The notes beneath the pieces were generated by a model that did no database searches, was not told where the DNA came from, and was given only the letters and a program-made list of their open reading frames with translations. A stretch of 64,000 bases of DNA from a virus. The position numbers were made by a program, and so were the translations under genes. The DNA lies in IMG/VR virus record IMGVR_UViG_3300045988_119718, positions 96,001 to 160,000 of that record; one strand, written 5' to 3'. Within the stretch, counting starts at the first letter, position 1. Each line of letters opens with the position of its first letter. Below, piece after piece: positions 5,716 to 62,394 of this stretch.

Positions 5716-5762
5716 AGCATACCTTCCCTATAACTTAGTAAGTTTTAGCTTGCTTAATTAGT

Positions 5763-6960: not shown

Positions 6961-6962
6961 GA

Positions 6963-8060
6963 TTAAACTCCTTTTGATACAATATCTTTCATAATCTTAT
7001 ATACTGTATTAGTAATTCTCTTAGTGCATTTATCACTCCTTTCAGATAATGTAGGAATATTTGAAATCATATACAAATTCATATTGATGAAATATGGTTC
7101 TACTACATCACCTGTAGATAAATCCATTGTATTAGAAGCTAAAGATAATAATACTACGATAGATCTAGAAAATCTATGGTCTTTATCATTCTTAATAATC
7201 CATTCAAATATATCTTTATCTTCAGGCTTATTCTTAGCCAATAAACCAATAATTAAAGAAGTATACAATGGAATATTATCACAATTTGTAGTTTTAGATT
7301 CTTTATCTGCAACGTCTTGTTTTAAATGATGCCTAATAAGCATATTAACTCTAGATACATGTCTCTTATATCTCTTATCAGAACATTCTTTAATAAGTTT
7401 ACTAAGAGTTATCTTTTTGACTTGTTCAATGAGAGATTCTAAAGTTAAAGCTCTCTTATAAGCTTCTCTACCAATAGAATATTCATTCTTTTCTTTTTCT
7501 TCCAAAAATTCCAAGTCTTCAGTAATACCAAATAAATCATTGTTATGATTAAACCAAGTTCTAAGAATTTCATCAGTATCTACATCGGTGGAAATATCTT
7601 TTACTTTATTAGCAAATTCCATGTTTTCATACATCATATAGGTACTATAAGCTCTAAATAAGATATAAGACTTAATAGCTTTATTTCTTTCTTTCTTATC
7701 TTTAATATCAGAAATATTAAGTTCTTCAGCAAGTATCTTAGCTAAGAAATCTTTATCAATATAATTTTCTACATCTAACTTATCTTCTTTATCATATTCT
7801 AGTTCTCTAGCAATTTTATAAACCTTAATGTCATCTTCGGTAGCTTCTACTTCTTTTAATTGCTCATCACTTAATTCTGGAATAGTAAAGTTTTCAATAT
7901 CTTTTTCAGTTAATGTTTTCTTAATAAGTTCATCAATTTCATCAGCATATTGAATTTTAACATCTTCTATTTCTTTATTACCCGCTTCAATAACATCTTT
8001 AATAGATTTGGTTTTAGTTACTTCTTCTTCCATAATAGTCTCCTTATAACTGTTTATCAA
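6963..8060 (-). CDS. Hypothetical acidic protein (365 aa).
   Basis: ORF, Glu/Asp/Lys-rich. It overlaps the stop of the upstream gene, consistent with translational coupling. Confidence 0.4.
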   Translation of the reverse strand: MINSYKETIMEEEVTKTKSIKDVIEAGNKEIEDVKIQYADEIDELIKKTLTEKDIENFTIPELSDEQLKEVEATEDDIKVYKIARELEYDKEDKLDVENYIDKDFLAKILAEELNISDIKDKKERNKAIKSYILFRAYSTYMMYENMEFANKVKDISTDVDTDEILRTWFNHNNDLFGITEDLEFLEEKEKNEYSIGREAYKRALTLESLIEQVKKITLSKLIKECSDKRYKRHVSRVNMLIRHHLKQDVADKESKTTNCDNIPLYTSLIIGLLAKNKPEDKDIFEWIIKNDKDHRFSRSIVVLLSLASNTMDLSTGDVVEPYFINMNLYMISNIPTLSERSDKCTKRITNTVYKIMKDIVSKGV

Positions 8061-17139: not shown

Positions 17140-17368
17140 GGTTAAAAACCTTAATATGAAGTTCCCATGAACTTCATTATCAATTATATAATATATATTT
17201 GAGTAATACTTTTATTTGTAATTTATCTATGTTACCTTAGCGAAAGAAAGGAGAAATAAAGTGAATACCAAAAAGAGAGAGCGAGAGCCATATGACTCTC
17301 GCCAAAAAGTTTTATACTCGATAGCAATAATAAATTTTAAAATAGAGAGATAAAAATAAGAGATAAAA

Positions 17369-20902: not shown

Positions 20903-20935
20903 TTGGTAATGTAAAAAAAAAGAATTGTATATTAT

Positions 20936-20976
20936 TGTATTGAAGCTAGATATCTAGCTTCAATACATTTTTATTT
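20936..20976 (+). terminator. Rho-independent terminator.
   Basis: Hairpin TTGAAGCTAGATATCTAGCTTCAA followed by a T-run. Confidence 0.45.
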
Positions 20977-21001
20977 ATATTTCTTAAGGAGGAAATATAC
21001 C

Positions 21002-28639: not shown

Positions 28640-29326
28640 ATGAATAAGCGTACCTCTATTTCTGATATTTATTCATCATCGTTAGTCATTAATAGTAAAG
28701 AATTAGACAGAGCTTACAAGAAATTAGATAAAGACCAATTAGATTATTTTAATTCTTTTTCTAATCATATCATCACTTGTGTAAATGCTGCATCTGGTTC
28801 TGGTAAAACGTTTGTAGCTGTGTTAGCAGCATTACAAGCATTTAACCAAGGAGAAGTGAATAAGATTTACTATATTAGAATACCAGATGATAGGTCATTA
28901 AGATTAGGATATCTTCCAGGGTCTTCAGATGATAAACAGTCTATTTATACAACTCCATTCTATAATGCATGTACTAGTTTAGGATTAAGAGAAGAAGATA
29001 TAGATATAGCAAGAGATAATAATGAAATAGTTCTATGTACTGATATAGTACTTAGAGGTACTAATATCTGTAATGCATTTGTTATTATAGATGAAGCACA
29101 AAATGGTAGATTATCTGATTTAAAACTTATATTAACTAGAATATCAGATAACTGTAAAGTAGCATTAATAGGTCACTCAGCTCAGTATGATAACTTTAAA
29201 GGAACTAATGAAAAAGCTTTTGAAAAATATATAGAGCATTTAACTAAGAAATCATGGGCTATAGAATGTAAACTTACTAAAAATTATAGAGGTAAACTTT
29301 CTTCATGGGCTGATGAATTATATTGA
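28640..29326 (+). CDS. phoH: PhoH-like P-loop ATPase.
   Basis: Walker A GSGKTF. Walker B / PhoH signature VIIDEAQN ... LIGHSAQYD. Confidence 0.65.
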   Translation: MNKRTSISDIYSSSLVINSKELDRAYKKLDKDQLDYFNSFSNHIITCVNAASGSGKTFVAVLAALQAFNQGEVNKIYYIRIPDDRSLRLGYLPGSSDDKQSIYTTPFYNACTSLGLREEDIDIARDNNEIVLCTDIVLRGTNICNAFVIIDEAQNGRLSDLKLILTRISDNCKVALIGHSAQYDNFKGTNEKAFEKYIEHLTKKSWAIECKLTKNYRGKLSSWADELY

Positions 29327-33735: not shown

Positions 33736-36573
33736 TCATTTTTTATTTTTATACTCTATCTCATAATGATCGAAATAGTAACCAGCTTTAGGCTTAGTTG
33801 AGATATTAGCTATTCTATTTCTGATAATAGAATACTTAGTATCAGATACTTTATCTACATTAGTTACGTCTATCTTAGCTTCATTAGCTTCAGAATTATC
33901 TATAGTAATATATACAACATCTGGAACAACTTTAGTAGCACCTATAGTAATATCCTCTGTAACTTGAATAGAAGATACTATATCATGCTTAACTCCATCT
34001 TTACCATAATAATACAAGCTACCAGCTATATAACCATCTTTAATAGATTTAACCGATACTCTGCAATATTTATTATAACCAATAGTAAATTTATTAATAC
34101 CTTTGCTATTAGTTCTAGGAATACCTTCAGCAGTAACTGTAATCAATTCATCTATGGTAGCTTCAATGGTAATATTATATCTTATATCAGTAATCTTAGT
34201 AGAATATATTATAGTATCTTCAGTTACATCTGCTTCAGTTATATTCAATACCCCTTTATTAAACCCTTCTGCAATATAAGTTATTTCAGCTCTTATATGA
34301 GGATATCTAGAGTTTACTACAAATGAGGCTGTATGCGATTCTTCTACACCATCCTTTAAATTATAGACAGTAATAATCTGATTTTGTACCTGATTAATAA
34401 TTACATTGTATTCTTTATAAGATGCAGGAGTAGCAGTTAAAGTAGTATTGCTAGTAATAACTGCTTTAGTAACACTAGGTGTACCTGGAGTATATTTATA
34501 CTTTCCATCTATAGCTTCAGTTCTTACTGTAATTAATGAATACTCAGGTACTTCAAAAGATTCAGTATAAGTTTTACCATTACATTCTACTATAATTCTC
34601 TGATTTGTGTATTTAGTTATATTTACTTTATAAATAGGGATATTAGAGTAGTCTATATCTAAAGAACGTTCTTTATGGGTTAGTATTAATCCATTATTTT
34701 CTTTTCTAATAAGTTCGTTTAATTCATTCATTCCATCAGTATCGAATTCAAAATAATGAGCATAGAAGTCATCTACATTATTGTTTGATAATATCATATC
34801 ATTCAAACCTTCATATTTAACATCTACGACTCTATTTATATTTAGATATGAATCTATAAACTTACTTACTATCTTTTCAGCGTTAATATTTACAGTACAA
34901 TTTAAATCCTTAGATATAATTCTTCTTTTATCTACAGTATAAAAGTCATATAAACTTTTATAACCTTTTGGAATTTTACTATCAAACTTAGATTCTCCAA
35001 AATTAAATGTGCCTGTTACTTTATTATTAAATACACCTTCATCGTGTATAAAGAAATATGGATATTGTATTTTACCATTATCATCTTTATTAAAATCAGA
35101 GAAGTCTATATTCTCTTTGGTGTACTTTAAATTTAGAGAAGCTAGTTTAATACCTTCTATATAAATATCCATAAGATTATTACCTAAATCTAAAGCTACT
35201 CCTATAGTATTCCCTTGTTCTGGAGATATAGAAGTTTCTACATTCTCTAGATAATGTAAATCGTTCTTATCAGAATTTTGCGTAGAATGTCTTACTAAAT
35301 GAAATAAATAAAATCCACCAGAATTATCCAATCCATTAGGAATAAAACAATTACCTCTATATAGATTTACTCTAATAGATTCAGTCATTATAGTATTAGG
35401 ATTAGTAACTTTTTCTTGACTAGGTTCACCTACTAAAGGAACACTAGTTATACCCATAGCAATAGGTATACCTACTATTCTATCCTTTAATTCCCCTTCT
35501 TTAACTGTATATTCAAAGTATACTTTATCTGTAGTAGGTATAGGATAATTTATATATACATTACCACCTACTTTATAAGAGTTCGTAATACCATACTTAT
35601 TATCTTCACCTGTTTCAAAATCATAATCAGCTTTGATATAAGTATTAGCATTCATATTATATTTATTACTTTTAGTAGTAATAAATTCTGGATCATCTGT
35701 TACTAAAGTTAAATTATCTGTATCTGGTTCTAATTCATTTTCTACAGATAATTCTCCATCCCATTGGATACTATAGGGGTTAAATATATCACCACTTATA
35801 TAAACATAGCATGGATTATCATCTGACCCTAATTCTGCATGTATTTCTTGGTCAGCCATACGTTCATAATATGCTTTATATAATGAATCATATCCTGGTA
35901 CTGGATGGGTTAATCCATTCTTACCAAAATTTACATATCCTGAAATATGTTTTAAATCATCCATAGAAGCTATTCTAAAATTATAATCTTCTTCTATATA
36001 TTTATAATTTATATTACTATATATACAAAAATACATATTAGGTTGTTCAGCTAAGTTAAATGGAGGTGTATATGAATAAAATGGTTTATCATATTCTCCA
36101 TCATAAGGATACTCATTGTTATAGTTTACAAACAGTTTAATTTTATTAGTATGATAATCTACTGCTACTCCTATAGTGTCTCCGATACCAGGTTTTCTTG
36201 TTCCTATAACACTATTACCATCAGCATCTATGCTGCTACCATCTATATACAGTACATTATCTGGTATTTCATTAGACAGTATTTCATATCTAGGGTCAGT
36301 TACATCATAGAATAAAGATGATATAGCATAATCTGCTATTAATACACCCAATGAAGGCTCTCTACTAATTCCTACATATAACGGAATGTGTTGTATTTTA
36401 TTTATAGGGTAATAATCAGTTATATTTATTTCAAACATTGTTTTATTTTTAATAGGGAGATTAGCTATTAAAAAGAATGGTTTATCATAATCAAAGTGTA
36501 ACCCATCACTAGATAAAACATTATCTAATGGAGAGCTATTTAAATCATATGACTTCATTAATATATTATTCAT
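33736..36573 (-). CDS. Large structural protein (945 aa) with C-terminal tandem divergent copies of the repeat module; a baseplate or fibre candidate.
   Basis: C-terminal NQIITVYNLKDGVEESHTASFVVNS...AEITYIAEGFNKG and further degenerate copies. Confidence 0.5.
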   Translation of the reverse strand: MNNILMKSYDLNSSPLDNVLSSDGLHFDYDKPFFLIANLPIKNKTMFEINITDYYPINKIQHIPLYVGISREPSLGVLIADYAISSLFYDVTDPRYEILSNEIPDNVLYIDGSSIDADGNSVIGTRKPGIGDTIGVAVDYHTNKIKLFVNYNNEYPYDGEYDKPFYSYTPPFNLAEQPNMYFCIYSNINYKYIEEDYNFRIASMDDLKHISGYVNFGKNGLTHPVPGYDSLYKAYYERMADQEIHAELGSDDNPCYVYISGDIFNPYSIQWDGELSVENELEPDTDNLTLVTDDPEFITTKSNKYNMNANTYIKADYDFETGEDNKYGITNSYKVGGNVYINYPIPTTDKVYFEYTVKEGELKDRIVGIPIAMGITSVPLVGEPSQEKVTNPNTIMTESIRVNLYRGNCFIPNGLDNSGGFYLFHLVRHSTQNSDKNDLHYLENVETSISPEQGNTIGVALDLGNNLMDIYIEGIKLASLNLKYTKENIDFSDFNKDDNGKIQYPYFFIHDEGVFNNKVTGTFNFGESKFDSKIPKGYKSLYDFYTVDKRRIISKDLNCTVNINAEKIVSKFIDSYLNINRVVDVKYEGLNDMILSNNNVDDFYAHYFEFDTDGMNELNELIRKENNGLILTHKERSLDIDYSNIPIYKVNITKYTNQRIIVECNGKTYTESFEVPEYSLITVRTEAIDGKYKYTPGTPSVTKAVITSNTTLTATPASYKEYNVIINQVQNQIITVYNLKDGVEESHTASFVVNSRYPHIRAEITYIAEGFNKGVLNITEADVTEDTIIYSTKITDIRYNITIEATIDELITVTAEGIPRTNSKGINKFTIGYNKYCRVSVKSIKDGYIAGSLYYYGKDGVKHDIVSSIQVTEDITIGATKVVPDVVYITIDNSEANEAKIDVTNVDKVSDTKYSIIRNRIANISTKPKAGYYFDHYEIEYKNKK

Positions 36574-36651: not shown

Positions 36652-37812
36652 TCATAAAGCTAAATTCTGATTACCTGATAAGAATCTTTTAGAATAGTAA
36701 TCTAAATTAAATTCTCTAGTATCTTTATCTAAATATTCTCTACTAATATACTTATCAAAACATTCTTTTTCAATATCATAGATGACTTTTCTAGATATAC
36801 ATTTATTGTATGAGTTAAATATGTATCTAGTTTCTAATGGGCATTCTGTGCAATATGAAACATGATTACACTGAATACATCTATCAATGTTTTCATTTAA
36901 AAGATTAGTATATAGATTAGTAAAATTAGACATTGATTTAGAATCAAACCCAGTAGAAATATTTCCTAGTACTAAATCATTATTATTATCTAATAATCCA
37001 TCTATTTCTTTTAAAAGTAAACATGGATAAATATCCCCATTAGGCACTACCATAAACATCTTTCCGATATATCTGCATTTATGGTCATAAATAAAATCAG
37101 GGTTTATAAATTTATTATAAATCATATATGTAAGATTATCCAAATCAAAATCATACTGATTATACAGCATATATATTTTATGCAGCTGATGTATAAAGAT
37201 AGTTTTAAACTCTTCAGTATTATAATATTTAGAGTATTCATCATTAAAAATAAAATAGTAAGATAACTTCTTACACCCTTGTTCTAGTGCATATTGAATA
37301 GAGTCAGCTAAATAACAAATATTGTCTTTAGTAACTGCTATAGCTATCATAACTTCATTATTATACTTAGAACAGCCTACTTTATCAACAATAGTAGACA
37401 ACTGTTTATCAGTAAGATGAGTTTGGGCTATTTCAGAAGCATGAATACCATCCCATGATATTTTAACTGATTCAGGAGAAATTATCTTTATTAAATCATT
37501 CATAATAAAGTTGTGATTAGTACCATTAGATACTATACCAATCTTAACTGTTGTATCTTTATATCGCTCAATCTTTTTTAACTCTTTGCATAGATTATAA
37601 AGCTCATTAGGATATATAGTTATCTCTCCCCCTAATAAGTTTATATATAACTTAGGGCCGATATTTAAGGTCTTTAAAAACTCTACCAGCTCTTTGCCTT
37701 TATTGAATACATTGTGCCTAGACCTAGAGTTATTAGTCTCAAAGCAATATTTACAATTCAAATTACAATAGTCATTAAATTTTATCCCTAAGAAATCAAT
37801 TTGCTCATACAT
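36652..37812 (-). CDS. Radical SAM / SPASM-domain enzyme (386 aa), putative peptide maturase number 3.
   Basis: Radical-SAM cluster motif CNLNCKYC (CxxxCxxC). C-terminal SPASM-like cysteines: C..GDIYPC ... CIQCNHVSYCTECP. Confidence 0.7.
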   Translation of the reverse strand: MYEQIDFLGIKFNDYCNLNCKYCFETNNSRSRHNVFNKGKELVEFLKTLNIGPKLYINLLGGEITIYPNELYNLCKELKKIERYKDTTVKIGIVSNGTNHNFIMNDLIKIISPESVKISWDGIHASEIAQTHLTDKQLSTIVDKVGCSKYNNEVMIAIAVTKDNICYLADSIQYALEQGCKKLSYYFIFNDEYSKYYNTEEFKTIFIHQLHKIYMLYNQYDFDLDNLTYMIYNKFINPDFIYDHKCRYIGKMFMVVPNGDIYPCLLLKEIDGLLDNNNDLVLGNISTGFDSKSMSNFTNLYTNLLNENIDRCIQCNHVSYCTECPLETRYIFNSYNKCISRKVIYDIEKECFDKYISREYLDKDTREFNLDYYSKRFLSGNQNLAL

Positions 37813-38992
37813 TTTTCATACCTAATAGCTTAATAAAATTGCTTACTAATTCGGCTTCTTCATCATTTTTCTGTATTGCTTCTATATTATTAATTCTATT
37901 AAAAGTATAATTATCCATCTTAGTAGTGGAGATATCAGTAGATAATGCAAACTTCAAATCTTCTGGTGAAGTATTAATAATCTTACCATTTAAAATTTTT
38001 TCATTATTAATTGCAATAGTAGCATATTTTCTTAACAATACTGCATACTTAATAACTTTAGATCTATCATAATAAGATAATCCTCTAAGAAGAGTCGGCA
38101 TATTGGTAAGACCATCATTGAACAAGTCGATGATCTTGTTCAATAATTTTTTACAAGTTGTAATTCTTTCTGCTCTATTTGTATTACTGATAGAAAATAA
38201 TAAGTACATCAGCATAGTATCACAGAATCTGAGATAACCATAGTTATACTTCTTATATTGATAATCTCCTATTTCACTATATAAGAAATTATCAAGCTTA
38301 TTATACAAATCCTGAAGATCTATTTTAATTCTATTATCTTCTAAAAGTTGATTGATATTATGAATATAGAAGCATACCCAATCACAGAATTGGGAGTTAA
38401 TATTATCTTTATCACTAGAATACTCTAAAGTCTTATTATAATACTTTTTAATAGTATTCATGCATTTGGATGTAATATCTTCTTCTGACATAGAATTTGT
38501 AATAAAGTCTTTAGAGATACTGTCTATAAGAATCTTGTAAGCAATATAGTTATAATAAATAAATTTACTATAGTTTTTAGATTCATGAGATTCAAAATAT
38601 TTAATAAAGGTTTTCATATAAGAGAAATAAACATCTTTTTTATTAGAATCATTAAAATCTATAAATGCAATTAATAATGCTAAATAGTTTTCATCATCTA
38701 ATGCTTTAGTATTATGAATATATTCTTCTCCAATAAAATCTTTACTAATTATTTCAAATTCTTGAAGTAAAATTGGTTCATTTTTTAATGATTCTTCAAT
38801 AGAAGATTTAATATCAGAGTATACTTTCTTATTATCTTCATTTTCTATAAACAAAGAAGAATATTTAATATATTCTTCAAATGTAGTAAAAGAATTATAT
38901 TTATCAGATAGAGCGTTAAGTTTATCTATTACATCAGATACTTTATTCTCTAATATATAATTATAAATTCTTTCTGGTAAAAAATATATCAT
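37805..38992 (-). CDS. Hypothetical protein (395 aa) embedded in the radical-SAM cluster.
   Basis: ORF. Translationally coupled to its neighbours. Confidence 0.4.
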   Translation of the reverse strand: MIYFLPERIYNYILENKVSDVIDKLNALSDKYNSFTTFEEYIKYSSLFIENEDNKKVYSDIKSSIEESLKNEPILLQEFEIISKDFIGEEYIHNTKALDDENYLALLIAFIDFNDSNKKDVYFSYMKTFIKYFESHESKNYSKFIYYNYIAYKILIDSISKDFITNSMSEEDITSKCMNTIKKYYNKTLEYSSDKDNINSQFCDWVCFYIHNINQLLEDNRIKIDLQDLYNKLDNFLYSEIGDYQYKKYNYGYLRFCDTMLMYLLFSISNTNRAERITTCKKLLNKIIDLFNDGLTNMPTLLRGLSYYDRSKVIKYAVLLRKYATIAINNEKILNGKIINTSPEDLKFALSTDISTTKMDNYTFNRINNIEAIQKNDEEAELVSNFIKLLGMKNV

Positions 38993-38993
38993 A

Positions 38994-40046
38994 TTAAACC
39001 TCCATATCTACATTATTAACCTTATATAACCAATTCTTATATCGCATAATTATTTTATAAAGTTCTGCTAATTCTTCATGATTAAGACTTGCTAAATATT
39101 TAGTAATAAGATTATCATAAACTTTCATAAGTTTACATGTTTCTGGTAAATAATTATCTAACCATTTATCACCAAACTTTAGCATTCTTTCATATCTACA
39201 TCCACCATCGCAAAGGTAAAAATATTTACAATTTTCTATCTGACAATCTTTACTGGTACAACGCTTCTGTATTTTATCAAAGTCTTCATATTTCTGTTCA
39301 GTAAATGCGATAGAAGTGCATGATGACATAGTTTTATCTGTAAGATAAGACTGTTCTTTACCTGCTGCGCATGACTGCATTGGTGCTCTATTAATATATG
39401 CCATTATCTTATTAAGATTTTCTGTATATGGATGCTCTAATGTACCTTCAAAAGTACAATAAAGATTCTCTTCTAAATCTTTAAACCATTGATCGTCATG
39501 GTCTTCACCTCTAGCAATACAGTATTGACCATTAATATGAAACTCTTTATCTAATCTATGGAATAACTTATTAAGTCTAGGTATATCTTTTACATTAGCA
39601 TTATTAATTACAGTCTTAATATCAAAGTGGTCTAGTCCTTCAGATATAGCATAATTAATATTATTCAATACTCTATCGGCAATACTTCTACCAGAAGTAT
39701 CTACTCTAGAATCTTTAAATCCATCCCAAGAAATTTGTAATTCTATATGCCATTTCTTTTGGAACTTAATAAACTCTTTCCAATTAGCCATACTAGAAGT
39801 TATAACTTGAAAGTTCATTTGATCGTGATACTTTTCTAAGGTGTATTCCATTAAGTCTAATCTCATTAATGGTTCTCCACCAAAGAATACCACTCTATTT
39901 GGTTTATTTTGCTCTATACACTCATCTATATCTTTTTCTGTAAGACAATCATTATTATACTTGATATAACAATAATGGCATCTATTAGGACATTGATTGG
40001 TTAAAAATAAATATATTTCTTTATACATTAGAATCCACCACCACAT
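38994..40046 (-). CDS. Radical SAM / SPASM-domain enzyme, putative peptide maturase number 2. The start is probably MYKEIYLF at 40031.
   Basis: CPNRCHYC (CxxxCxxC), FFGGEPL, and a C-terminal Cys cluster: CAAG...C...CTSKDCQIENCKYFYLCDGGC. Confidence 0.7.
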   Translation of the reverse strand: MWWWILMYKEIYLFLTNQCPNRCHYCYIKYNNDCLTEKDIDECIEQNKPNRVVFFGGEPLMRLDLMEYTLEKYHDQMNFQVITSSMANWKEFIKFQKKWHIELQISWDGFKDSRVDTSGRSIADRVLNNINYAISEGLDHFDIKTVINNANVKDIPRLNKLFHRLDKEFHINGQYCIARGEDHDDQWFKDLEENLYCTFEGTLEHPYTENLNKIMAYINRAPMQSCAAGKEQSYLTDKTMSSCTSIAFTEQKYEDFDKIQKRCTSKDCQIENCKYFYLCDGGCRYERMLKFGDKWLDNYLPETCKLMKVYDNLITKYLASLNHEELAELYKIIMRYKNWLYKVNNVDMEV

Positions 40047-40519
40047 TTCTTATCATGACATGTACCACCATGGCATGATTGGCAAGATATTTGGCAAGTA
40101 GACTGACAAGATGCTTGACATACAAGTTTGCATGGGCCTGCCCAATAATCATCAGACTTAGAATTCATTTGCTGTAGTAAAAGTTTTGCTATATTATAAA
40201 TAATACCTATATCATTAGCTGTAATTATTTTTTGTTTTTGAACTTTATTGTTGATATCTTTTAATTGATTATAGTTTGCTGAAGTAGTTCTAGAAAGCTG
40301 TGTAATAGTTTTACTATAACCATTACCACCTTTTCTACTTATTTCGTTATCAGTAACAGCATTAATAGAATCTAATTCTGTAATATTTGTAAGCAAACAA
40401 TTTATCGTATTATTAAAGAAATCATTTGTAATGAAATGATCTTTAGCAGGAGAATCTGGTAAATAATATTTTACAGATTGTCTAATTACTTCTGTAGCCA
40501 TTAGAAACCACCCCCACAT
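40028..40519 (-). CDS. Cys-rich precursor protein B (about 157 aa from MATEV...) with a SCIFF/ranthipeptide-like C-terminal core, LVCQASCQSTCQISCQSCHGGTCHDKKCGGGF.
   Basis: Seven Cys with C-x3-C spacing at the extreme C-terminus. The core is identical to that of precursor A. It lies immediately upstream of a radical-SAM/SPASM gene. Confidence 0.65.
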   Translation of the reverse strand: MWGWFLMATEVIRQSVKYYLPDSPAKDHFITNDFFNNTINCLLTNITELDSINAVTDNEISRKGGNGYSKTITQLSRTTSANYNQLKDINNKVQKQKIITANDIGIIYNIAKLLLQQMNSKSDDYWAGPCKLVCQASCQSTCQISCQSCHGGTCHDKKCGGGF

Positions 40520-40911
40520 TTCTTATCATGACATGTACCACCATGGCATGATTGGCAAGATATTTGGCAAGTAGACTGACAAGATGCTTGACAGACTAAT
40601 CCACATGTACCATTGTTATTCCAATATTTCCAAGAATGTTCTTGCAATACATTGGAAATAGATTTACATAAATTATATATAGCTTTAGCATCATCTGCTT
40701 TAATAACATCACCTTGACTGATTAAGCTAATAATAGAATGAACAGTTTTAGGAACACCAATTCTAGAATATTCTATAATCTGTTTCTTTCTATATTCGTC
40801 TTTCTCTAATTCATCTATATTAGATAACATAGTCTCAATCATGTTATCATAAATAGTCTTACTAGAATTGACTAAATTATAGTGTATACCATTATTTACT
40901 ATCTTTTCCAT
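40501..40911 (-). CDS. Cys-rich precursor protein A (136 aa) with the identical C-terminal core, LVCQASCQSTCQISCQSCHGGTCHDKKCGGGF.
   Basis: Same as precursor B. The N-terminal roughly 100 aa are unrelated to precursor B. Confidence 0.65.
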   Translation of the reverse strand: MEKIVNNGIHYNLVNSSKTIYDNMIETMLSNIDELEKDEYRKKQIIEYSRIGVPKTVHSIISLISQGDVIKADDAKAIYNLCKSISNVLQEHSWKYWNNNGTCGLVCQASCQSTCQISCQSCHGGTCHDKKCGGGF

Positions 40912-42322
40912 TATCTTCTACACCACCTTTATTATTCAATGAATATAAAATCATAGTCATAAGAATTTCAGATTTCTTTCTAAAGTATTCTTCAAATGTA
41001 GGGAATACATTATCAGAACCCAAATTATTAATCATTTCTTTAAGATGAATCAATCTAAGCTTTAATGCAAAAGTATTAGATAAATCCGCAGTATCCATAA
41101 TCATATCGATATACTTCTTAATCTCTAAATTAGTCTTAAGAATATTTAAGTATCTACTTCTAATATTAGTAGCATTAAGAATCTCAGCTTGCTTAATAAT
41201 AATTACATCGGTCATAATCTTATGAAGATCACAATAAGATTGTAAGACTTTATTCTCATCACCATTTTCTCTAAGGTTTTCTTCAGGGCAACCATTCTTA
41301 CAATTTCCTTTAGCTTTACAAGTTTCACATTCTTCTTTTTGATATACTGCTTGTTTTTCTTTTCTATCAGTATGGACTTTGGTTTCATCTACGTCAGTAT
41401 AGATATTACCAATCTTCTGTACTAATTTAATTTCATCCTTAGAAGTTGGTAATTGATGGCATGGATAGATATCCCCATTATAATCAATAGTACACCATTT
41501 ATTCAATCCAATAGGGCAAAGTAAATCATCAGATACTTCTGGTTCCATAACCTGTCTCATAAAGTCATCTATATTCTTAATAGCTATATTTCTCTTAGAA
41601 CCTTCTTCATTAAGTTTATCGACATACATATCCACTAATTCAATATAGTTTTCTTTATAGTCATTCAGTTGTTCTTCTGTCCACTCTACATCAGTTACTG
41701 GCATAGGACAAATAGAATCTATTCCTAAAGTATTTACTAAGTAATCTACACCATCATACATATACTTTGCATCTTCTGGTAAGATAGTCATTCTAGCTTC
41801 AATAAATACTTTCAATCCATTAGTAATAAGAATCTTTAAGTTCTTTACTACTTGATTCCATGAATTAGAACGGTTCTTATCATGAACATGTTTAATACCA
41901 TCAATAGATACTAATAAACCAATATTATTATCATCTACGTATTGAATGAAGTCTTTTGGCAAGAATGATAAGTTAGTAGTCATACCATAATCTACTAATC
42001 TATGATGCTTATTATTATCATCTATAACTGCTTTAATACATTCCCAATTCAATAATGGCTCTCCACCAAAGAAATTGACTTGGAACCTTCTATTAAAACC
42101 AGATAAATCATTATATGCCAGTCTCATAGCATCTACTGCTACTTCTGGCTTCATATATTTTTTATTTTTATCTTTTTCAAAACAATAGATACATTTAAAA
42201 TTACAATCATTAGTAATATCCAATGTGATAGAATCACAATCATAGACTTCTCTAAATGGTTTCATAATTATTCCTCCTAAAAAATAAATTATTATAATGT
42301 AAAAAAGATTATTAGTAGCCAT
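40892..42322 (-). CDS. Radical SAM / SPASM-domain enzyme, putative peptide maturase number 1. The start is probably MKPFREVY.
   Basis: CNFKCIYC (CxxxCxxC), FFGGEPLL, and a SPASM cluster: CPIGLNKWCTIDYNGDIYPCHQL...CETCKAKGNCKNGCP. Confidence 0.7.
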   Translation of the reverse strand: MATNNLFYIIIIYFLGGIIMKPFREVYDCDSITLDITNDCNFKCIYCFEKDKNKKYMKPEVAVDAMRLAYNDLSGFNRRFQVNFFGGEPLLNWECIKAVIDDNNKHHRLVDYGMTTNLSFLPKDFIQYVDDNNIGLLVSIDGIKHVHDKNRSNSWNQVVKNLKILITNGLKVFIEARMTILPEDAKYMYDGVDYLVNTLGIDSICPMPVTDVEWTEEQLNDYKENYIELVDMYVDKLNEEGSKRNIAIKNIDDFMRQVMEPEVSDDLLCPIGLNKWCTIDYNGDIYPCHQLPTSKDEIKLVQKIGNIYTDVDETKVHTDRKEKQAVYQKEECETCKAKGNCKNGCPEENLRENGDENKVLQSYCDLHKIMTDVIIIKQAEILNATNIRSRYLNILKTNLEIKKYIDMIMDTADLSNTFALKLRLIHLKEMINNLGSDNVFPTFEEYFRKKSEILMTMILYSLNNKGGVEDNGKDSK

Positions 42323-53380: not shown

Positions 53381-54715
53381 CTATATATTGTTATTTTGGT
53401 CTTTTACTCTATTAGAATATCCTTTTTGAGTATTAATAGCATAGTTATTAATAAACTCTAAGTCTATATAGAATACTAGCTCTGAAGTTCTTTCTACTAA
53501 TGGTTGGTTAGTACTAATTGTATAGGTATTCCAATCTATTTGTATAGGAACTTCTGATAATCCATTAAATAGTTTTACATCCATAAATACTGATGGAGAT
53601 ATAAATATAGACTTAGTGTATTCAGCTATGTCAAATAATGAATTTTCATTTCTAGATTGTATGAGTTCTTTAAAGTGAATTGTAGAAGGTTTATGTTGCT
53701 CATATATATCGTTATCTTCTATATAATCAGTAGTCATATACTGATTCCAGCCTTTATCATTCTTAAATGGTATTGCTCCAATATAGAGATTATAAATAGT
53801 ACATTTTAATGCTTTATCTATTAAAGCAAAATCATGTTTATCTTTAGCATAATAAGCATAGAATTTAGGAGCTGGGAATAAACATTCTATCTGAGTAGAT
53901 ACAACAAAGTTATTGTCTGTTTGACCTTCTCTTTCTCCTTCATCTACTTCTATATCACCACATCTAAGATGTACATACATATCTGTAAGCTTAATAAAGT
54001 ATTCATATTCTCCTTTAGTTCCTCTAAACTTACAAACAAATGGTAATCTAGAGTTCTTATTTAAGAATGATAAGAATTTACAATTATCAACTACCTGTTC
54101 ATTTCTTATCTCGAATCCAGAATCTTTAGCTATAGCCAGCATCAATGCTTTAGGAACATTAAAGTCTATTTCTGCATATCTAGTTTCAGTAGCATTAGCT
54201 CTACATGCAATTTGCATAAACTTGTATAAATCCATAGCGGTATTAAATGAAGATACTTTAATTCTAAATTCAAAATCTACTTTCCATTGTTCTAAAGTAA
54301 GAGAAACCATATTCTTATTAGTAGGGTTTACAAAGAAACAATCTTTAAATCTAGTTCTATTATTAATGATATTTCTTCCTAGTAAGTATAAATCAGTATT
54401 TTCTCTATTAAAAGTATAATCCATTCTAGGTCTAATAGCTAAAGCTGGTTTATTCTTTCTAATATTATTAATCATATCATTAGATAAAAAATCTCTAAGT
54501 ATATTTCTACCAGCTATATATTCTGATTTAAAGAAATCAGGTTGAAATTTATTTTTAAACCATTTTCTCATATATTCTACACAAATAGAATATGATGAAG
54601 AAACCGATGGAATACATAATGACATAGCATATTCATTCTTAAATCGCTTTAAATCTTTTATTGGAGAATCATGAGTAGTTACTAAATATTGAGGGTTATC
54701 ATGATTAAATCCCAT
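53381..54715 (-). CDS. Hypothetical protein (444 aa).
   Basis: ORF only. Confidence 0.4.
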   Translation of the reverse strand: MGFNHDNPQYLVTTHDSPIKDLKRFKNEYAMSLCIPSVSSSYSICVEYMRKWFKNKFQPDFFKSEYIAGRNILRDFLSNDMINNIRKNKPALAIRPRMDYTFNRENTDLYLLGRNIINNRTRFKDCFFVNPTNKNMVSLTLEQWKVDFEFRIKVSSFNTAMDLYKFMQIACRANATETRYAEIDFNVPKALMLAIAKDSGFEIRNEQVVDNCKFLSFLNKNSRLPFVCKFRGTKGEYEYFIKLTDMYVHLRCGDIEVDEGEREGQTDNNFVVSTQIECLFPAPKFYAYYAKDKHDFALIDKALKCTIYNLYIGAIPFKNDKGWNQYMTTDYIEDNDIYEQHKPSTIHFKELIQSRNENSLFDIAEYTKSIFISPSVFMDVKLFNGLSEVPIQIDWNTYTISTNQPLVERTSELVFYIDLEFINNYAINTQKGYSNRVKDQNNNI

Positions 54716-54750: not shown

Positions 54751-54790
54751 AAAAAATAAAGAGATGCTGAATAATCAGCATCTCTTTATA
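54751..54790 (-). terminator. Rho-independent terminator 3' of RNAP beta-prime exon 2.
   Basis: Hairpin AAAGAGATGCTGAATAATCAGCATCTCTTT plus T-run on the minus strand. Confidence 0.5.
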
Positions 54791-54792
54791 GA

Positions 54793-55032
54793 TTAATCAA
54801 TATGGTATTTTTCTTTCAACTGTTGTATCTTCTGTTTCTGCCCTATAGAATAATTATCTCTTCCAATATTGATTAAACCATTAGCATTAATAATCATATC
54901 TTTAAAAATATTCATATCATTGTTAAAGGTTCCATCATTTCTAGAAATCATCATAGAATTTCTTGGATTAAATACTTCCATAGCAGATTCCCAAAACTTT
55001 TTATTTGGCACATAGATAATATTCAAGCAATC
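54793..55032 (-). CDS. rpoC: RNA polymerase beta-prime subunit (N-terminal-half gene), exon 2. It resumes at D of NADFDG|D, then CLNIIYVP...PRNSMMISRNDGTF.
   Basis: After removal of the intron the junction reads AADFDG|DCLNIIYVP. Downstream, NSMMISRNDGTF matches E. coli ALMMSTNNILSPANGEP. The ORF-track entry 54793..55095 extends spuriously into the intron. Confidence 0.6.
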   Translation of the reverse strand, partial: DCLNIIYVPNKKFWESAMEVFNPRNSMMISRNDGTFNNDMNIFKDMIINANGLINIGRDNYSIGQKQKIQQLKEKYHID

Positions 55033-55399
55033 CTTTTTCTTTACATAGGTCGTTAGTCTATGCAGTTCTCTTAAGAACGTCTTATGCGTTAGCATAAGTA
55101 GAGACTATATCTACATCTCATAGAGATGATACGCACTTCGGATACACTTGTATCCTACTCCTTACGGATAGTCGTTGAACAGAATTAGAAATTCATATTT
55201 CTAAAACTTGCTGCTGATTGTACATTGCATATACTTTTAGGATTTCTCCATGAGTAATCTTATAGATTTTTTCTGTATTTCTACTGCATTCACACTTATA
55301 CTTTCTATCGTATTATGTTGTAGCTCTATAAGCTTTAGCACTTTCCAGCAATTCACGTATTTTAAATTACACTATCGCTAGTATAATTGGCAATTATTT
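55033..55399 (-). mobile_element. Group I self-splicing intron (367 nt, no internal ORF) inserted in the NADFDGD codons of the RNAP beta-prime gene.
   Basis: On the minus strand: P AATTGCTGGAAA, Q AATCAGCAGC, R GTTCAACGACTA, S TAGATATAGTC. P7 pairs GACTA with TAGTC. The exon ends in U (GGU) and pairs with the IGS GCCA. The intron ends in G before GAT. Splicing restores an in-frame DFDGD. Confidence 0.7.
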
Positions 55400-56773
55400 A
55401 CCATCGAAGTCTGCTGCCATAGTTGCAAGAATCTGTAAAGGCATACCCATTGTGTAGTCATCATTAATAGCTACACATTGTACTGCCAGAATAGAACCAT
55501 AATTAATTGTAGGATTACGATTAATCAATACATTAATACCAGAAGTATCGATGATATTTTGAATAATATCTCTAATACGTTTATCCTCTTTCAGTAATCC
55601 TTGCTTATATCTCATATATGCTGTATTATATGAAATATTATAAGTTCTTACTAAAATATTAATTACAGTCTGTTGAAGTAATTCCAATAATGTAAAATAA
55701 GATAATGTAACCTGATCTACTCTAAGTTTAGGGTCGGGAACAATAACTGATCTAGATGTAAATCCACATCTACCACCAATCAGTCTTTTAATAACACCAT
55801 TCTTATCTTTGCAGATATTAATTACTTCAGTATACAGCTCCAGATATCTCTGTTGAAGATTCCACAATAGTACATTTCTATGTTTTGGAATTCTGTAAAT
55901 AGACAATGTGTCATCATTAATCTTAGCTGCTAACTTAGCCATCATATTATAGATACCATTGGTTTTTTCATATGTAAATCTACCATCTCTTCTATCAAAT
56001 GGTCTAAGAGCTGTAGAATACACTGGAATACTATGAATAAAGATTTTATCTCTATTCTCTAAGATATCTTGATAATAATCAGGTTTCTTATTTTTATTCT
56101 TCTTATGAAAATATTCTAGGATTTCATCAAATCTATGATAAAATTCAATCAATCCAATTCCTTTATACTTTTCATCTAACTTAGTCTTTCTAGTAGACCT
56201 CTTAGCTGTAGATTTAATAATTTTAGAAGAATACTTTTGTACTGGTTTACCATTTTCATCGAGATCAATAATTGGTTCTACAATAGAAGCAAACTGATCT
56301 TTACCAATATAGCTTTCCAATACATAGAATAAATTCGGATGAATAATTGGATATCCTTCTTTAAGAGTAATCCAACCAGTCATCTCAAAATCTTCACCTA
56401 CATAGATTACTCTGGAATGACAATATGGGCAGATCATTCCTTCATAATTCTTCCCTTGTGTTCTTTTGCATTTACAAGAATATCTATCTGTAAATGCATC
56501 AGGGTCTTGCATAGTTTTTGTAAACTTGGATGAGAAAATAGAATTATCGCTTTTTAATCCTACATCAATAGCTTTCTTATCATCCTCAGGTTCATCAATA
56601 ATAAACCCTTTTCCCGATATCAGGTCTTTTGCTTTCTCTTCATCTAGATTTAATCGTAACAACCTAGTTTGGAAAGTAAACTTCTTTGATACTGGATAAT
56701 TAACGGTTAAGTTTAATTCCATATTACTCTCCTTCTCTTTAAAAACAAATAAAAAAGAATGAGTCAAGCTCAT
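55400..56773 (-). CDS. rpoC: RNA polymerase beta-prime subunit (N-terminal-half gene), exon 1 (458 aa, ending ...AADFDG).
   Basis: Zn-finger CKCKRTQGKNYEGMICPYCHSRV (E. coli [23 protein letters not shown]). VLINRNPTINYGSILAV aligns with VLLNRAPTLHRLGIQAF. The ORF stops one codon after DFDG. Confidence 0.7.
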
Positions 56774-56784
56774 TCTTTTTTATA
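56741..56784. terminator. Bidirectional terminator.
   Basis: Hairpin AAGAATGAGTCAAGCTCATTCTT with A/T runs on both sides. Confidence 0.45.
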
Positions 56785-56788
56785 TTAT

Positions 56789-57085
56789 CTACTTGTTTTT
56801 ATCTTTGTCAATCTTAATATGAATACCGCTATCATCTTTTTTAAATTTTATTTTAAGATCAAACAGTATATTTGCAATATCACTAAGTACTCCAGCTACA
56901 CCACTACTTTCTGTTGGGCTATCATCTGGATAATAGTTTCTCTTAATTCTATGAGTATTGGATTTATCAATACGATTAACGACATGTCTCAATTCTTTCT
57001 TTTCATCTGTCATAATAAACATCCTTCCCATAAAAATAATTGTTACTGAATATGATGAGGCATGGTATTCATAGCAAAAATACAA
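56789..57085 (-). CDS. Hypothetical protein (98 aa).
   Basis: ORF only. Confidence 0.35.
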   Translation of the reverse strand: MYFCYEYHASSYSVTIIFMGRMFIMTDEKKELRHVVNRIDKSNTHRIKRNYYPDDSPTESSGVAGVLSDIANILFDLKIKFKKDDSGIHIKIDKDKNK

Positions 57086-58378: not shown

Positions 58379-58460
58379 TTAATATTACTCCTTTCTTAAA
58401 TACAATCTGAAGATTTCAGATTATTATACATTCAATAATATAATATACAATTATTTTTAA

Positions 58461-58755: not shown

Positions 58756-60012
58756 TCACTTCTTTAATCCGAATGCTTTCCATACATCTATTTCATGAAG
58801 TTTAACTGTAGAGTCATGGAATGCCTTTAATGCTTTAAGCTTTAATGCTGATGCTACTTGTGGCATAGCAACACCAATATCTTTAAATCCCGCTCTATAG
58901 AATAGATTTCCTGCACATACATTACAAATCTTATTAGGTTCTTTATATTCACATAAAGAAGAGAATCTCATTCTAACTGTTTTACCTAAATATTTATCTT
59001 TATTAGTAGAATTCAATTCTATAAGTTTATTTCCTTCTACTATATAAGAATACATCATAAGTTTAATATTATACTTATCTAATGTAATTTCTATAGTTCT
59101 CTTAGTACCACAATCAGTTCCTTTAGGAGCTAAAGTAAGATGCTGAAATGCTCTTAATAATAGTTTTTCATTGTACCCGCCTTCAGGGGTCTTCTTAGAT
59201 CTAGAATATGGGCCAGCTGCTAATGCTTTAGCTAATTTAGAATAATCATCTCTAGAAATACCATCAATGTAACTTGACATAGCTACGTCATAACCCTTAG
59301 TAGGGTCTGGGTCTTTAATAGCACCTTTCATTACAAAGATATTTTTAAAGTTATTAGCAAAAGAACCTTTAGCTTTGGAATCATACATATCCATAGATAT
59401 ATCATCTTTAAGTTCTTTTTTAGCATAGTCTAATAATTCTTTTTCTATCTTATCCGCAGCATACATATTTCTTTCTGGATCTGCTAATTCATCTGCATAT
59501 TTCTTTTCTAATTGTTTTTTCATTTTATCAATCTTATAAGAAATAGTAAGCATGTTTGTAGTAAATCCAGAGCATAGTATATTACAATAAGGCTGGAATT
59601 TCTGCTGTCTCATTAAATATCTTTTTAATGCAGACAATGGTAATCTATCTTCCATAATAGCATATGAAATCTGATCATTCATATCGCCTAATACATCTTT
59701 ATTTATAGGCTTATTGATATAATGGAATAAATCAAATAAGTCTTGTTCTATAAAACACTTATTGAACCACCATCTACCTAAAGTAGTAGTAAAAGTATTT
59801 TTATTCTTCTTATTACCAATACCATAAGAATTAGGTGGAATAGTAATAATATCATATGTATTATACTTTGGTGCTTTACCATTTAAAGTACCAAAAGTTT
59901 CCATAAGTTTAGAAAGAGATTCTACATCTTTTTGAGATAAATTTAAAAAATAATCTACTTCATCTTTGTTTGTAATCTTTCTAGCAACACGTTTGTTAGT
60001 AGATACTGCCAT
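58756..60012 (-). CDS. Hypothetical protein (418 aa).
   Basis: ORF with its own RBS AAGGTGG inside the 3' end of the HNH gene. Confidence 0.4.
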   Translation of the reverse strand: MAVSTNKRVARKITNKDEVDYFLNLSQKDVESLSKLMETFGTLNGKAPKYNTYDIITIPPNSYGIGNKKNKNTFTTTLGRWWFNKCFIEQDLFDLFHYINKPINKDVLGDMNDQISYAIMEDRLPLSALKRYLMRQQKFQPYCNILCSGFTTNMLTISYKIDKMKKQLEKKYADELADPERNMYAADKIEKELLDYAKKELKDDISMDMYDSKAKGSFANNFKNIFVMKGAIKDPDPTKGYDVAMSSYIDGISRDDYSKLAKALAAGPYSRSKKTPEGGYNEKLLLRAFQHLTLAPKGTDCGTKRTIEITLDKYNIKLMMYSYIVEGNKLIELNSTNKDKYLGKTVRMRFSSLCEYKEPNKICNVCAGNLFYRAGFKDIGVAMPQVASALKLKALKAFHDSTVKLHEIDVWKAFGLKK

Positions 60013-60015: not shown

Positions 60016-61068
60016 TTAGCTCACCACCTTTTTATATATTCTACCTTTATAAACATTAGAGGCAACTATACCATTTAATCTATTTTTTATATTGCCTCTA
60101 TCTTTTTCAACATAATTATTAGCTCTAAGATATTTATTTAACCCTCTATATTTTCCTATAAATTCATTAGTGGCTTCGTCATATACTTCAAATTCAAGAT
60201 TATACCTTCTATTATTAGATTGCTCTTCTTGTGTTGCCCATGTACAATTTTCAGGAGAATAGTCTTTATTTACATCTATTCTATCCATAGTTGTATTTAT
60301 TAATCCATGTTTATCAGCAAATTCTTTAAAAGAGTTCCAATTATCTAAAAAATAATTATGGAAATCATGCCATCTATCACAAACTTTTATACCTCTCCCG
60401 CCATATAACTTGTAACGATTATTAGATGGATTATAACGTTGCATCATACCTCTCCATCTTTTATAAAAAGCTCTATATGAAGGATCAGTTCTATCCTCGA
60501 TTTCGTTGTAAATTAAATGAGAATATTCATCATGCTTAGTTCCATGCCTTTTACAAAAATTACTGTAATATATTTCTTTTGTATATCCGCAAATTTTACA
60601 TTTAGCTAAAAATCTAGGCATATTATTTTTATATCCTAAAAATTTAATTAATACCATATCTTCAATAGTTTCTCCGACTTTTTCTTTATAATAATCTTCT
60701 TCACAATTTAGCCTATTGTGAAAATAATTATATTTTATAAAATTACTTTTTAATACTTTTTTTATATGCCCACATTTAGTGCATTGAATATTGCAGTATT
60801 GCTCATTACGATCTGTATACTCATCTAAAAGCTCTTTAAACTTATAATCAGTTCTAACTACATTTTTCAAAAAATCTTCATTGCAAGTATCTAGCGAATG
60901 CTTATAATGATATAACGTAATACTCTGCTTTGTTATATGTTTAATATGACCGCATTTAGTGCATTGAATAGTATAAACAGGGGCATAATGTTTATTTCTT
61001 CCATCATACGATATAATTTGGTAATCACCGATTATTTCTCCGACTAAATCTGAATAATTAGTTTTCAT
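60016..61068 (-). CDS. HNH homing endonuclease (350 aa) with three N-terminal Zn-ribbon-like repeats (C.KCGHIK).
   Basis: HNH_3-type motif: FYKRWRGMMQRY...GGRGIKVCDRWHDF...DRIDVNKDYSPENCTWATQEEQSNN. Strong RBS AAAAGGAG. Confidence 0.7.
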   Translation of the reverse strand: MKTNYSDLVGEIIGDYQIISYDGRNKHYAPVYTIQCTKCGHIKHITKQSITLYHYKHSLDTCNEDFLKNVVRTDYKFKELLDEYTDRNEQYCNIQCTKCGHIKKVLKSNFIKYNYFHNRLNCEEDYYKEKVGETIEDMVLIKFLGYKNNMPRFLAKCKICGYTKEIYYSNFCKRHGTKHDEYSHLIYNEIEDRTDPSYRAFYKRWRGMMQRYNPSNNRYKLYGGRGIKVCDRWHDFHNYFLDNWNSFKEFADKHGLINTTMDRIDVNKDYSPENCTWATQEEQSNNRRYNLEFEVYDEATNEFIGKYRGLNKYLRANNYVEKDRGNIKNRLNGIVASNVYKGRIYKKVVS

Positions 61069-61557
61069 ATGCTAATATCTCCTTTTATTTTTATATTAAT
61101 ATAAGTGCTATAAAAACTAATTATTAATTTTTGGTTTTATTGTATTTTTAGAAGTAAATACTATAGTTAATAGTTATTGACTTACGTAAATCGATCAATG
61201 CATTTTTATTCGCTTAGAGTCGTTAATTCTAAACCGCTTATTTAAAGCCGCTTTATGTCTCCATAAAGAGTAGATCATATCATAATCTCTATTAAAGAGA
61301 TTTCTCCCATTTCCACCCACTTGGATGTACGTCATAAAGACTGATCGTTGAACCTTCTCTATAAAAGAGCTTGGCTGCTGATTGTGCATTGTTTATACCT
61401 TTTAGGTTTTAGCCATGAGGCATCATAAAGATTGTTTCTGTTTTTCAACAACCTATGTTTAAAATATAGGTTCTTTATGCTTTAGCAGTTTCCAGCAATT
61501 AAGGAGATTTGCAAATCTATATCGCTATAGACTGGAACCATTGAATAATAATATAGC
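61069..61557 (-). mobile_element. Second group I intron-like element, homologous to 55033..55399. Its boundaries and exons are not resolved.
   Basis: P AATTGCTGGAAA, Q AATCAGCAGC, R GTTCAACGATCA, S TATGATATGATC. The P7 pairing has co-varied to GATCA/TGATC. The embedded ORF 61195..61389 is probably spurious. Confidence 0.5.
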
Positions 61558-62394
61558 TTAACGCTTGTTATTATCGCTTAATTCATTTGGTATGTTTAAC
61601 CTAGTTACAGGTCTGATATTCATATATTCAGCATTATCCACTGTATCAGACAATTTACCATCTGTTTTTACATAACCAGTACAAAGAGAGATAGAGTTAA
61701 TTCTAGCATCATTCAATCCTGTACCATAAAAGAAAAAGTCTCTACAATCGTCTTTGGTAATAGACATCTGCATTGAAACTATAGATTCTACTTCCATATC
61801 AGTAGACTCTTGTGTTGTATATACATTAGCGTCTATAGGAGTACCATCTGTAAATTGCTGTGTAAATACTGGATTAGAATCAAACTTCTTAAAGTAATAT
61901 GCGATTCTATCTGATTTCTCTTTTCTACCAAAGTAAGTACCAGTCTTAGTATAGTCTCTCTGTACTGGGGTTAAATCAGTATCTGGAGTGGTGTATCTAA
62001 ATGGAACAATACCACCATAAGTATCTGTATAAGCTGGATTAATCCATGAAGCATATTTAGCTGCATATACTTGTGAATTTTCTCTACCGCAGCCATCTGT
62101 ACCTACACAGAACAAGCATACTTTTTCTAGTTTATTTTCAGTATTAGATTCTTCAGAATTAGCAAAAGTAAAATCAAGCATAGAATTATAGTTCGGTGTC
62201 TTTTCAGGTTCATCAATATCAAATAACAACCTAGCTATAAATCCACCACCAGCTAATGTCATAATATTATGAGTTGTGAATAATACTTCCCCAGTATCAG
62301 TATACCATGCTTTAATAACTGTTTTAAAATTAGTACGTTCACCAGTTATACCCATGGTATCTTTTAGAGATAAAGGTTTATTTATAATAGACAT
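61558..62394 (-). CDS. Hypothetical protein (278 aa). It lies immediately 5' of the intron-like element, so its 3' end may be misdefined.
   Basis: ORF only. Confidence 0.4.
   Translation of the reverse strand: MSIINKPLSLKDTMGITGERTNFKTVIKAWYTDTGEVLFTTHNIMTLAGGGFIARLLFDIDEPEKTPNYNSMLDFTFANSEESNTENKLEKVCLFCVGTDGCGRENSQVYAAKYASWINPAYTDTYGGIVPFRYTTPDTDLTPVQRDYTKTGTYFGRKEKSDRIAYYFKKFDSNPVFTQQFTDGTPIDANVYTTQESTDMEVESIVSMQMSITKDDCRDFFFYGTGLNDARINSISLCTGYVKTDGKLSDTVDNAEYMNIRPVTRLNIPNELSDNNKR

Follow-up and report, generated by a model that had tools for sequence, protein, structure and literature searches.

A probable intron-split beta-prime N-terminal subunit gene of an AR9/phiKZ-type non-virion RNA polymerase in an uncultured jumbo phage

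The two exons and the protein that they encode

The stretch of DNA analysed here, referred to throughout as the window, comprises 64,000 nucleotides (positions 96,001 to 160,000 of IMG/VR virus record IMGVR_UViG_3300045988_119718). Between positions 54793 and 56773 its minus strand carries a gene in two pieces, related to the N-terminal half of the beta-prime subunit of multisubunit RNA polymerases (beta-prime-N). An open reading frame (ORF) of 459 residues (56773..55394) terminates with ...MAADFDGK*, and a 100-residue ORF lies about 300 nt downstream (55095..54793). The Pfam domain RNA_pol_Rpb1_2 covers residues 333-458 of the longer ORF (E 4.3e-9, 37.3 bits, cutoff 25.3). As the match runs to the end of the ORF, a beta-prime-like active-site domain is cut short within its Mg-binding motif.

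The two pieces are described here as exons separated by a group I intron of 367 nt without an ORF (55033..55399, minus), which is indicated by a match to Rfam family RF00028, by a U.G pair in stem P1 and by alleles that lack it. Exon 1 (55400..56722, minus; 441 codons), recognised from the ORF and its Pfam and PHROG matches, ends with the codons GCA GCA GAC TTC GAT GGT, encoding AADFDG. Exon 2 (54793..55032, minus; 79 codons and a stop) aligns to exon 2 of gp270 of Bacillus phage AR9, and opens with GAT, the codon for the third catalytic Asp, followed by CLNIIYVPN.... Joined, the exons read ...AADFDG|DCLNIIYVPN..., and after splicing the three-aspartate Mg-binding motif of the DPBB domain (NADFDGD type) is present as AADFDGD. 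The protein stops about 77 residues past this motif.

Counted from the first ATG (56773) the spliced product has 537 residues, close to the figure of about 540 given in an earlier reading of the window, which was made from the sequence only. The true start is probably Met18, at 56722, because it is preceded by an AAGGAG ribosome-binding site, while the first ATG is enclosed in a hairpin that resembles a terminator (56783..56749). Met18 is also the start chosen by gene callers on related contigs, which give calls of 442 and 520 residues. The mature beta-prime-N would therefore have 520 residues. The hairpin, with its T-run (56749..56783, minus), is a pattern match only, and stands directly upstream of the ribosome-binding site; a second terminator-like hairpin with a T-run, likewise a pattern match, lies just past the stop codon (54756..54789, minus). 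The best sigma-70-like match of the region, TTGACA-16-GATAAT (11/12; 56811..56784, minus), abuts the upstream hairpin. Such promoter-like sites are pattern matches only, and show no overall enrichment (30 found, 29.7 expected).

The spliced protein was compared with solved structures, with the PHROG families and, using tblastn, with 50,697 phage records. Among the structures it matches chain d of the AR9 non-virion RNA polymerase (7S01/7S00) with an E-value of 7e-43 and phiKZ gp55 (7OGP_A) with 1.3e-22 over residues 60-461, followed by the cyanobacterial gamma subunit (8H3V_E; 1e-11) and bacterial beta-prime (around 1e-8). Among the families it matches PHROG 2987 ('RNA polymerase beta subunit') with E 5.6e-57 and 194.5 bits, against E 4.7e-5 and 22.8 bits for the paralogous PHROG 2986; PHROG 2987 is also the best family for AR9 gp270 and phiR1-37 g274. 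The tblastn search gave a single match per jumbo-phage genome, all below 35% identity, and these include AR9 g270 (annotated as the N-terminus of non-virion beta-prime), phiKZ PHIKZ055 and phiR1-37 g274. The structural, PHROG and tblastn matches together identify the protein as a non-virion beta-prime-N, rather than its virion paralogue or a fragment of a host rpoC.

Several proposals of the sequence-only reading are borne out by these results: a beta-prime N-terminal half made from two spliced exons and ending shortly past the active site, a split like that of gamma (PMC7598289 describes the split site that they share), and membership of the jumbo-phage multisubunit polymerases, as seen in the matches to AR9 gp270 and phiKZ gp55.

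On the basis of these comparisons, we consider that the locus most probably, with a likelihood of roughly 90%, represents the intron-split beta-prime-N gene of a non-virion multisubunit RNA polymerase of the AR9/phiKZ type. The protein might instead be the beta-prime-N of the polymerase that is packaged in the virion, given that the two paralogues share the DPBB domain and the split site (PMC7598289), and that a virion-polymerase subunit gene lies only 2 kb upstream. We regard this as improbable, since the family containing AR9 gp270 outscores the paralogous one so widely, and since the only AR9 and phiKZ proteins matched at E < 1e-5 are AR9 g270, which is annotated as non-virion, and phiKZ gp55, which is present in the phiKZ polymerase structure 7OGP.

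The intron and its alleles in sister genomes

The match to RF00028 extends over 55409..55081 (50.0 bits, E 9.3e-12, obtained with a 601-nt slice). The 5' splice site is placed after U55400, which forms the U.G pair in P1 that is also predicted by an energy fold, and the 3' splice site follows G55033, the terminal G of the intron. These two sites define an intron of 367 nt (55399..55033) that contains no ORF. A motif scan found all of the core elements as exact matches, namely P (AATTGCTGGAAA), Q (AATCAGCAGC), R (GTTCAACGACTA) and S (AGATATAGTC). Hairpin P9 is present, followed by P9.1 and P9.2 beyond the end of the Rfam match, and a P10 pairing, as read from the sequence, is possible between the first bases of exon 2 (GAUU) and AAUU just 5' of the guide G. 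The fold has a z-score of -2.9, and none of 100 shuffled sequences was equally stable. As judged from these elements the group I core is complete, and we infer that the pre-mRNA undergoes guanosine-dependent self-splicing.

Fifteen further loci of the same phage (referred to by L numbers) were found by anchoring on two neighbouring proteins of 418 and 444 residues, exact copies of which occur in 53 and 143 metagenome index blocks respectively. The exons follow one another with 0 nt between them in five contigs (L011, L152, L154, L159 and L163; 95-98% DNA identity). L011 is colinear with positions 52000-64000 of the window at 94-95% DNA identity, minus exactly 367 nt, and is the contig of P0001, a protein from a large protein database that is a contiguous 520-residue sequence, 98% identical and continuous across the splice junction. 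The empty-site alleles and P0001 thus confirm the splice junction independently.

In the other contigs the gap between the exons is 367 nt as in the window (L005, L155, L156, L157, L160 and L164), 377 nt (L153) or 1060-1061 nt (L158, L161 and L162). The long form differs from the short one by an insert of about 695 nt, which lies between nucleotides 204 and 207 of the intron in the loop of P6 and encodes an HNH_3 endonuclease of 229-244 residues. In L161 it has 229 residues and is found at 6841..7530. This intron-borne HNH is related to AR9 g271 (47% identity over 53 residues, E 2e-11). The intron sequence is 96-100% conserved among the alleles. Compensatory changes are seen in P9, where the window has CUUAUGC/GCAUAAG and L005 has CUCAUU/AAUGAG, so that both sides of two pairs are altered; this compares a single divergent copy.

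All 16 alleles retain AADFDGD and an intact 520-residue product, and exon 2 is conserved and in frame in all 11 that contain the intron. Relative to the window, exon 1 is 95-100% identical in DNA and the protein 96.7-100% identical; 11 alleles are one residue away from the window protein despite about 2% divergence in exon DNA, and most of the DNA differences are synonymous. Intact frames and few residue changes indicate strong purifying selection, in alleles with and without the intron alike.

It could be argued that the insertion is not spliced, so that the locus is a pseudogene, or encodes a 442-residue protein lacking the third Asp together with a separate small protein. In favour of this, the evidence for splicing is at the level of DNA, the Rfam score is borderline, and gene callers annotate ORFs of 442 and 62 residues. 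Such an outcome would nevertheless leave unexplained the complete set of group I core elements with its U.G pair, terminal G and P10 pairing, the conservation of the intron with compensatory changes, and the maintenance of the exon 2 frame in every intron-containing allele. Furthermore, the AR9 homologue is annotated as a spliced join, and its mature protein is present in the solved enzyme (7S00 chain d, ...GDYDGDVLNIIPV...). We thus see little prospect of the insertion being retained in the message.

Four clustered synonymous changes next to the insertion site (GATTGTCTCAAC) are found in 6 of the 11 intron-containing alleles and in 0 of the 5 empty ones (Fisher p ~0.06, with genomes that are not independent samples). 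This haplotype would fit co-conversion or target-site immunity, and is only suggestive. In more distant relatives, whose proteins are about 50% identical, group I introns interrupt this gene at two further places, NRN|P and NAD|FDGD (L006, 5199..5516 and 5655..6020, and also L007, L008 and L010; RF00028, 28-29 bits, E 3e-5 to 5e-5). Together with DFDG|D, these sites fall within a stretch of about 40 codons around the catalytic loop, which marks it as an intron hot spot.

The window contains a second group I intron, of 380 nt (61201..61580, minus; RF00028, 64 bits, E 5.6e-16). Its host gene (62394..61581 and 61200..61148) has no assigned function, is interrupted near its 3' end, and gives a spliced product of 288 residues, the junction being fixed by the intron-less allele of L153 (...NIPNE|SLIDLRK...). 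This intron and that of beta-prime-N have sequence in common in P4-P6 and P9.2, and the 380-nt intron, too, is polymorphic among the sister genomes. A 278-residue ORF upstream of the virion-polymerase gene had been considered as an intron-joined RNA polymerase fragment; it has no match in PHROG or among phages and belongs to this unrelated 288-residue gene with its own intron.

Between the stop codon of the 288-residue gene and the start codon of the virion beta-prime-C-like gene lies a free-standing HNH endonuclease gene (60016..61068, minus; 350 residues, PHROG 374, E 5e-36). About 1.1 kb including this gene is absent from L011, L154, L157, L161 and L162, and its absence from these five contigs implies that it is a separate mobile element.

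Its position 4.6 kb upstream (61068..60016) raises the question of collaborative homing, in which this free-standing HNH would mobilise the ORF-less beta-prime-N intron in trans. The first three genomes compared fitted the idea, with intron and HNH gene both present (the window and L005) or both absent (L011). In the 16 genomes, however, the two occur together in 8, the intron alone in 3 (L157, L161 and L162), the HNH gene alone in 2 (L159 and L163) and neither in 2, while in L152 the site is empty and two short ORFs stand where the HNH gene would be. The free-standing HNH moreover has no relationship to the HNH encoded in the AR9 intron. With each of the four combinations represented, collaborative homing is essentially rejected.

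Partner subunits and gene neighbourhood

The sequence-only reading had found no C-terminal half of beta-prime in the window. This needs correction: a 719-residue ORF (14980..17139, minus) is the C-terminal part of the non-virion subunit (beta-prime-C), with matches to AR9 gp154 (7S00_D, E 2.3e-41) and PHROG 3015 (E 2.8e-48), and to AR9 g154 by tblastn. It lies within the window 38 kb from beta-prime-N, and adjoins the catalytic gene of PolB and a helicase gene, the same arrangement as in AR9 g152-g156. At 17200..17188 (minus), about 49 nt upstream of beta-prime-C, the early-promoter 13-mer of AR9, AAATATATATTAT, recurs without a mismatch and mirrors the promoter that precedes AR9 g154.

A further polymerase fragment, of 418 residues (58756..60012, minus), lies 2 kb upstream of beta-prime-N and is a beta-prime-C-like subunit of the virion RNA polymerase. 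It is a homologue of AR9 gp264 (g264, by tblastn) and matches PHROG 2962 (E 2.4e-65), the family to which gp264 itself maps. Matches to Staphylococcus jumbo phages were also obtained with tblastn.

Two other ORFs were considered as polymerase components and rejected. The 444-residue ORF next downstream of beta-prime-N (53381..54715, minus) was a candidate for a fifth subunit like gp226, set aside for want of evidence; it has no similarity to AR9 gp226 and no match in the PDB or the phage database, its only match being to PHROG 21946, of unknown function (E 1.7e-12). A 945-residue ORF (36573..33736, minus) gave no match as a polymerase piece, including in the reference phage collection.

The gene complement in the remainder of the window includes PhoH (29326..28640, minus; Pfam, E 2.7e-31) and a divergent PolB (PF20286, E 1.5e-35), which fit the gene set of polymerase-encoding jumbo phages. 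A large terminase and a split family-B polymerase are core genes of such phages (PMC7598289). The combination of a split polymerase with these genes, which had earlier been described as unusual, is in fact the norm for this phage group: in AR9, PhoH is encoded by g075, the large terminase by g121 and the split PolB by g152, and both split RNA polymerases are there as well. In the large terminase ORF of the window (8941..11220, minus; 759 residues), similarity to terminase PHROG profiles is limited to residues 22-188 and 468-603, and the roughly 280 unmatched residues in the middle are possibly an insertion or an intein. The AR9 terminase gene, by contrast, is interrupted by four introns.

Some other features of the window are recorded here. 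A sub-threshold match to the Rfam family cow-rumen-4 (RF02948) lies at 20937..20998 on the plus strand (44.8 bits, gathering threshold 48.5, E 2.9e-4). It is directly preceded by AATTGTATATTAT (20923..20935), and the same 13-mer is found at 58452..58440 (minus), upstream of a block of small ORFs. At least three radical-SAM-like ORFs are clustered at 36652..42322 (minus), of which 36652-37812 and 40892-42322 match PHROG 1802 (E 8e-23 and 7e-32, respectively) and 38994-40046 has a weak match.

Proposed function and comparison with known systems

We propose that the group I intron, which sits between the second and third Asp codons of the Mg-binding motif (DFDG|D), would be removed from the pre-mRNA by self-splicing in a guanosine-initiated, two-step transesterification. 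Protein with a competent active site would be produced from the spliced mRNA only, because the unspliced message stops after DFDGK. The 520-residue subunit would then assemble with the 719-residue beta-prime-C, and with beta-N, beta-C and a specificity subunit encoded elsewhere in a genome of about 250 kb. The resulting polymerase of four or five subunits, made after infection and not packaged, would transcribe the late genes of the phage. The intron would be a selfish element that spreads by HNH-mediated homing, the copy in the window having lost its HNH gene or never gained one.

A number of observations count against this interpretation. The splicing is read from DNA and not from RNA, and AR9 and phiKZ are the source, by analogy, of the proposed expression timing and late-gene role. 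With 50.0 bits, the intron does no more than equal the Rfam gathering score of 50. Rfam scans of the whole window, at gathering or E-value thresholds, returned no intron, and a scan of four loci was also empty; these negatives are uninformative, because the Rfam speed filters tighten as more sequence is searched and drop AT-rich introns unless slices are shorter than 1 kb. No homologue of AR9 g089, g105 or g226 (beta-N, beta-C and the fifth subunit) was found in the 64-kb window with tblastn, so that the completeness of the enzyme is taken from its family. Beta subunits were also not retrieved from relatives by a profile-seeded scan of IMG/VR or with two degenerate DNA patterns for GRYGNKGV, scans that missed relevant contigs. 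Finally, the window shows no enrichment of the early-promoter motif of AR9 (47 sites against 52.9 expected, allowing up to 2 mismatches). As a general signal here it is ruled out, the one exact copy being that before beta-prime-C.

The capture of a host-derived rpoC fragment as a non-functional moron, which the sequence-only reading had itself named beforehand as the case that would overturn it, can be dismissed: it has in its favour a weak similarity to bacterial beta-prime (E ~1e-8), but the phage non-virion subunits match better by at least 30 orders of magnitude, every related contig keeps the gene in a syntenic position, 16/16 alleles keep motif and frame with mostly synonymous DNA differences, and the partner beta-prime-C is present.

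The reference phages nearest to that of the window are AR9/PBS1, the Staphylococcus S6-like phages, phiR1-37, Listeria LPJP1 and Fusobacterium JD-Fnp, at about 25-35% protein identity. The earlier suggestion of an under-described lineage is thus correct in that no reference phage exceeds about 35% identity, but the clade is abundant in metagenome catalogues, with 931 homologues and with contigs of 150-308 kb. One NCBI assembly contains the phage (GCA_902731155.1, 266,626 bp). The labels of the records suggest an origin in the human gut.

By similarity of the RNA polymerase subunits, the closest cultured phages are AR9/PBS1, Staphylococcus phage S6 and phiR1-37, in whose DNA thymine is replaced by uracil. 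A broader scenario can be sketched, which as a whole we think rather unlikely. The window would belong to a widespread uncultured gut jumbo phage of about 250 kb, in which the active-site codons are a hot spot with three independent intron sites, and in which empty, HNH-containing and HNH-less alleles co-circulate. The introns might act as weapons between co-infecting strains, for which the intron-based competition of PhiPA3 against PhiKZ offers a precedent, and the phage might perhaps share uracil-containing DNA and template-strand promoter recognition with AR9.

For annotation, the consequence is that what appears to be a truncated rpoC would be a complete, intron-split polymerase subunit, and that the gene combination is a hallmark of AR9/phiKZ-type jumbo phages. 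The protein adds a new and divergent member to a family already known, and both the type and the position of the intron in its gene have precedents. The result extends the polymerase family to an abundant uncultured phage, apparently of the human gut, and with it the occurrence of an AR9-type intron among the codons for the catalytic aspartates. Both features were already known from Bacillus phage AR9, and the current understanding of these polymerases is unchanged. The added value is modest and lies in the population data, in which the empty site, the ORF-less intron and the HNH-containing intron are all found in one phage. This natural series of alleles would lend itself to work on homing, or on competition mediated by introns, in populations of gut phages.

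The closest known system is that of AR9, whose non-virion beta-prime-N gene is, like many jumbo-phage polymerase genes, disrupted by an intron (bioRxiv 10.1101/2020.12.14.422802). AR9 gp270 (chain d of 7S00/7S01) belongs to the same family as the window protein and has the same C-terminal end point, and the annotation of its gene joins two pieces, which are separated by g271, a gene for an HNH homing endonuclease. The AR9 intron follows GAC GGT of GDYDG|D, and its position is identical to that in the window, the Gly codon of D(F/Y)DG|D being in both cases the last before the intron. The two introns have related core sequences (GTTCAACGACTAT and AGATATAGTCT), and the endonuclease ORF follows the Q element in AR9 as it does in the sister alleles of the window. 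Exon 2 of AR9 gp270 reads DVLNIIPVFDN..., to which exon 2 of the window aligns. The differences are also clear. Identity to AR9 gp270 is only about 30%, an extra N-terminal segment of about 110 residues in the window protein falls outside the alignment, the motif is AADFDGD rather than GDYDGD, and the intron is 367 nt long without an ORF, compared with 897 nt in AR9. Unlike AR9, the phage of the window is uncultured, its record names pointing to human-gut cohorts.

The other comparisons are more distant. Pseudomonas phage phiKZ gp55 (7OGP chain A) belongs to the same subunit family with about 25% identity, and in the phage records searched no intron is reported for it at the DFDG|D site. Cyanobacterial RpoC1 (gamma; 8H3V_E) likewise corresponds to the N-terminal half of beta-prime, stops after the active-site DPBB domain and has the same split site (PMC7598289); it is part of a cellular enzyme that uses alpha, omega and sigma, and its similarity to the window protein covers only some 150 residues surrounding the active site.

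For the intron, the parallels are mobile group I introns with HNH endonucleases in essential phage genes, namely the intron of the SPO1/SP82 DNA polymerase gene, which has a nicking endonuclease, and the intron of a PhiPA3 polymerase-subunit gene, in this case the virion polymerase (PMC12908238). The copy in the window lacks an endonuclease, unlike both of these. The introns of SPO1/SP82 and PhiPA3 are likewise inserted at active-site codons, and all of these systems share an HNH gene in a peripheral loop in some alleles, and presence or absence of the intron between close relatives.

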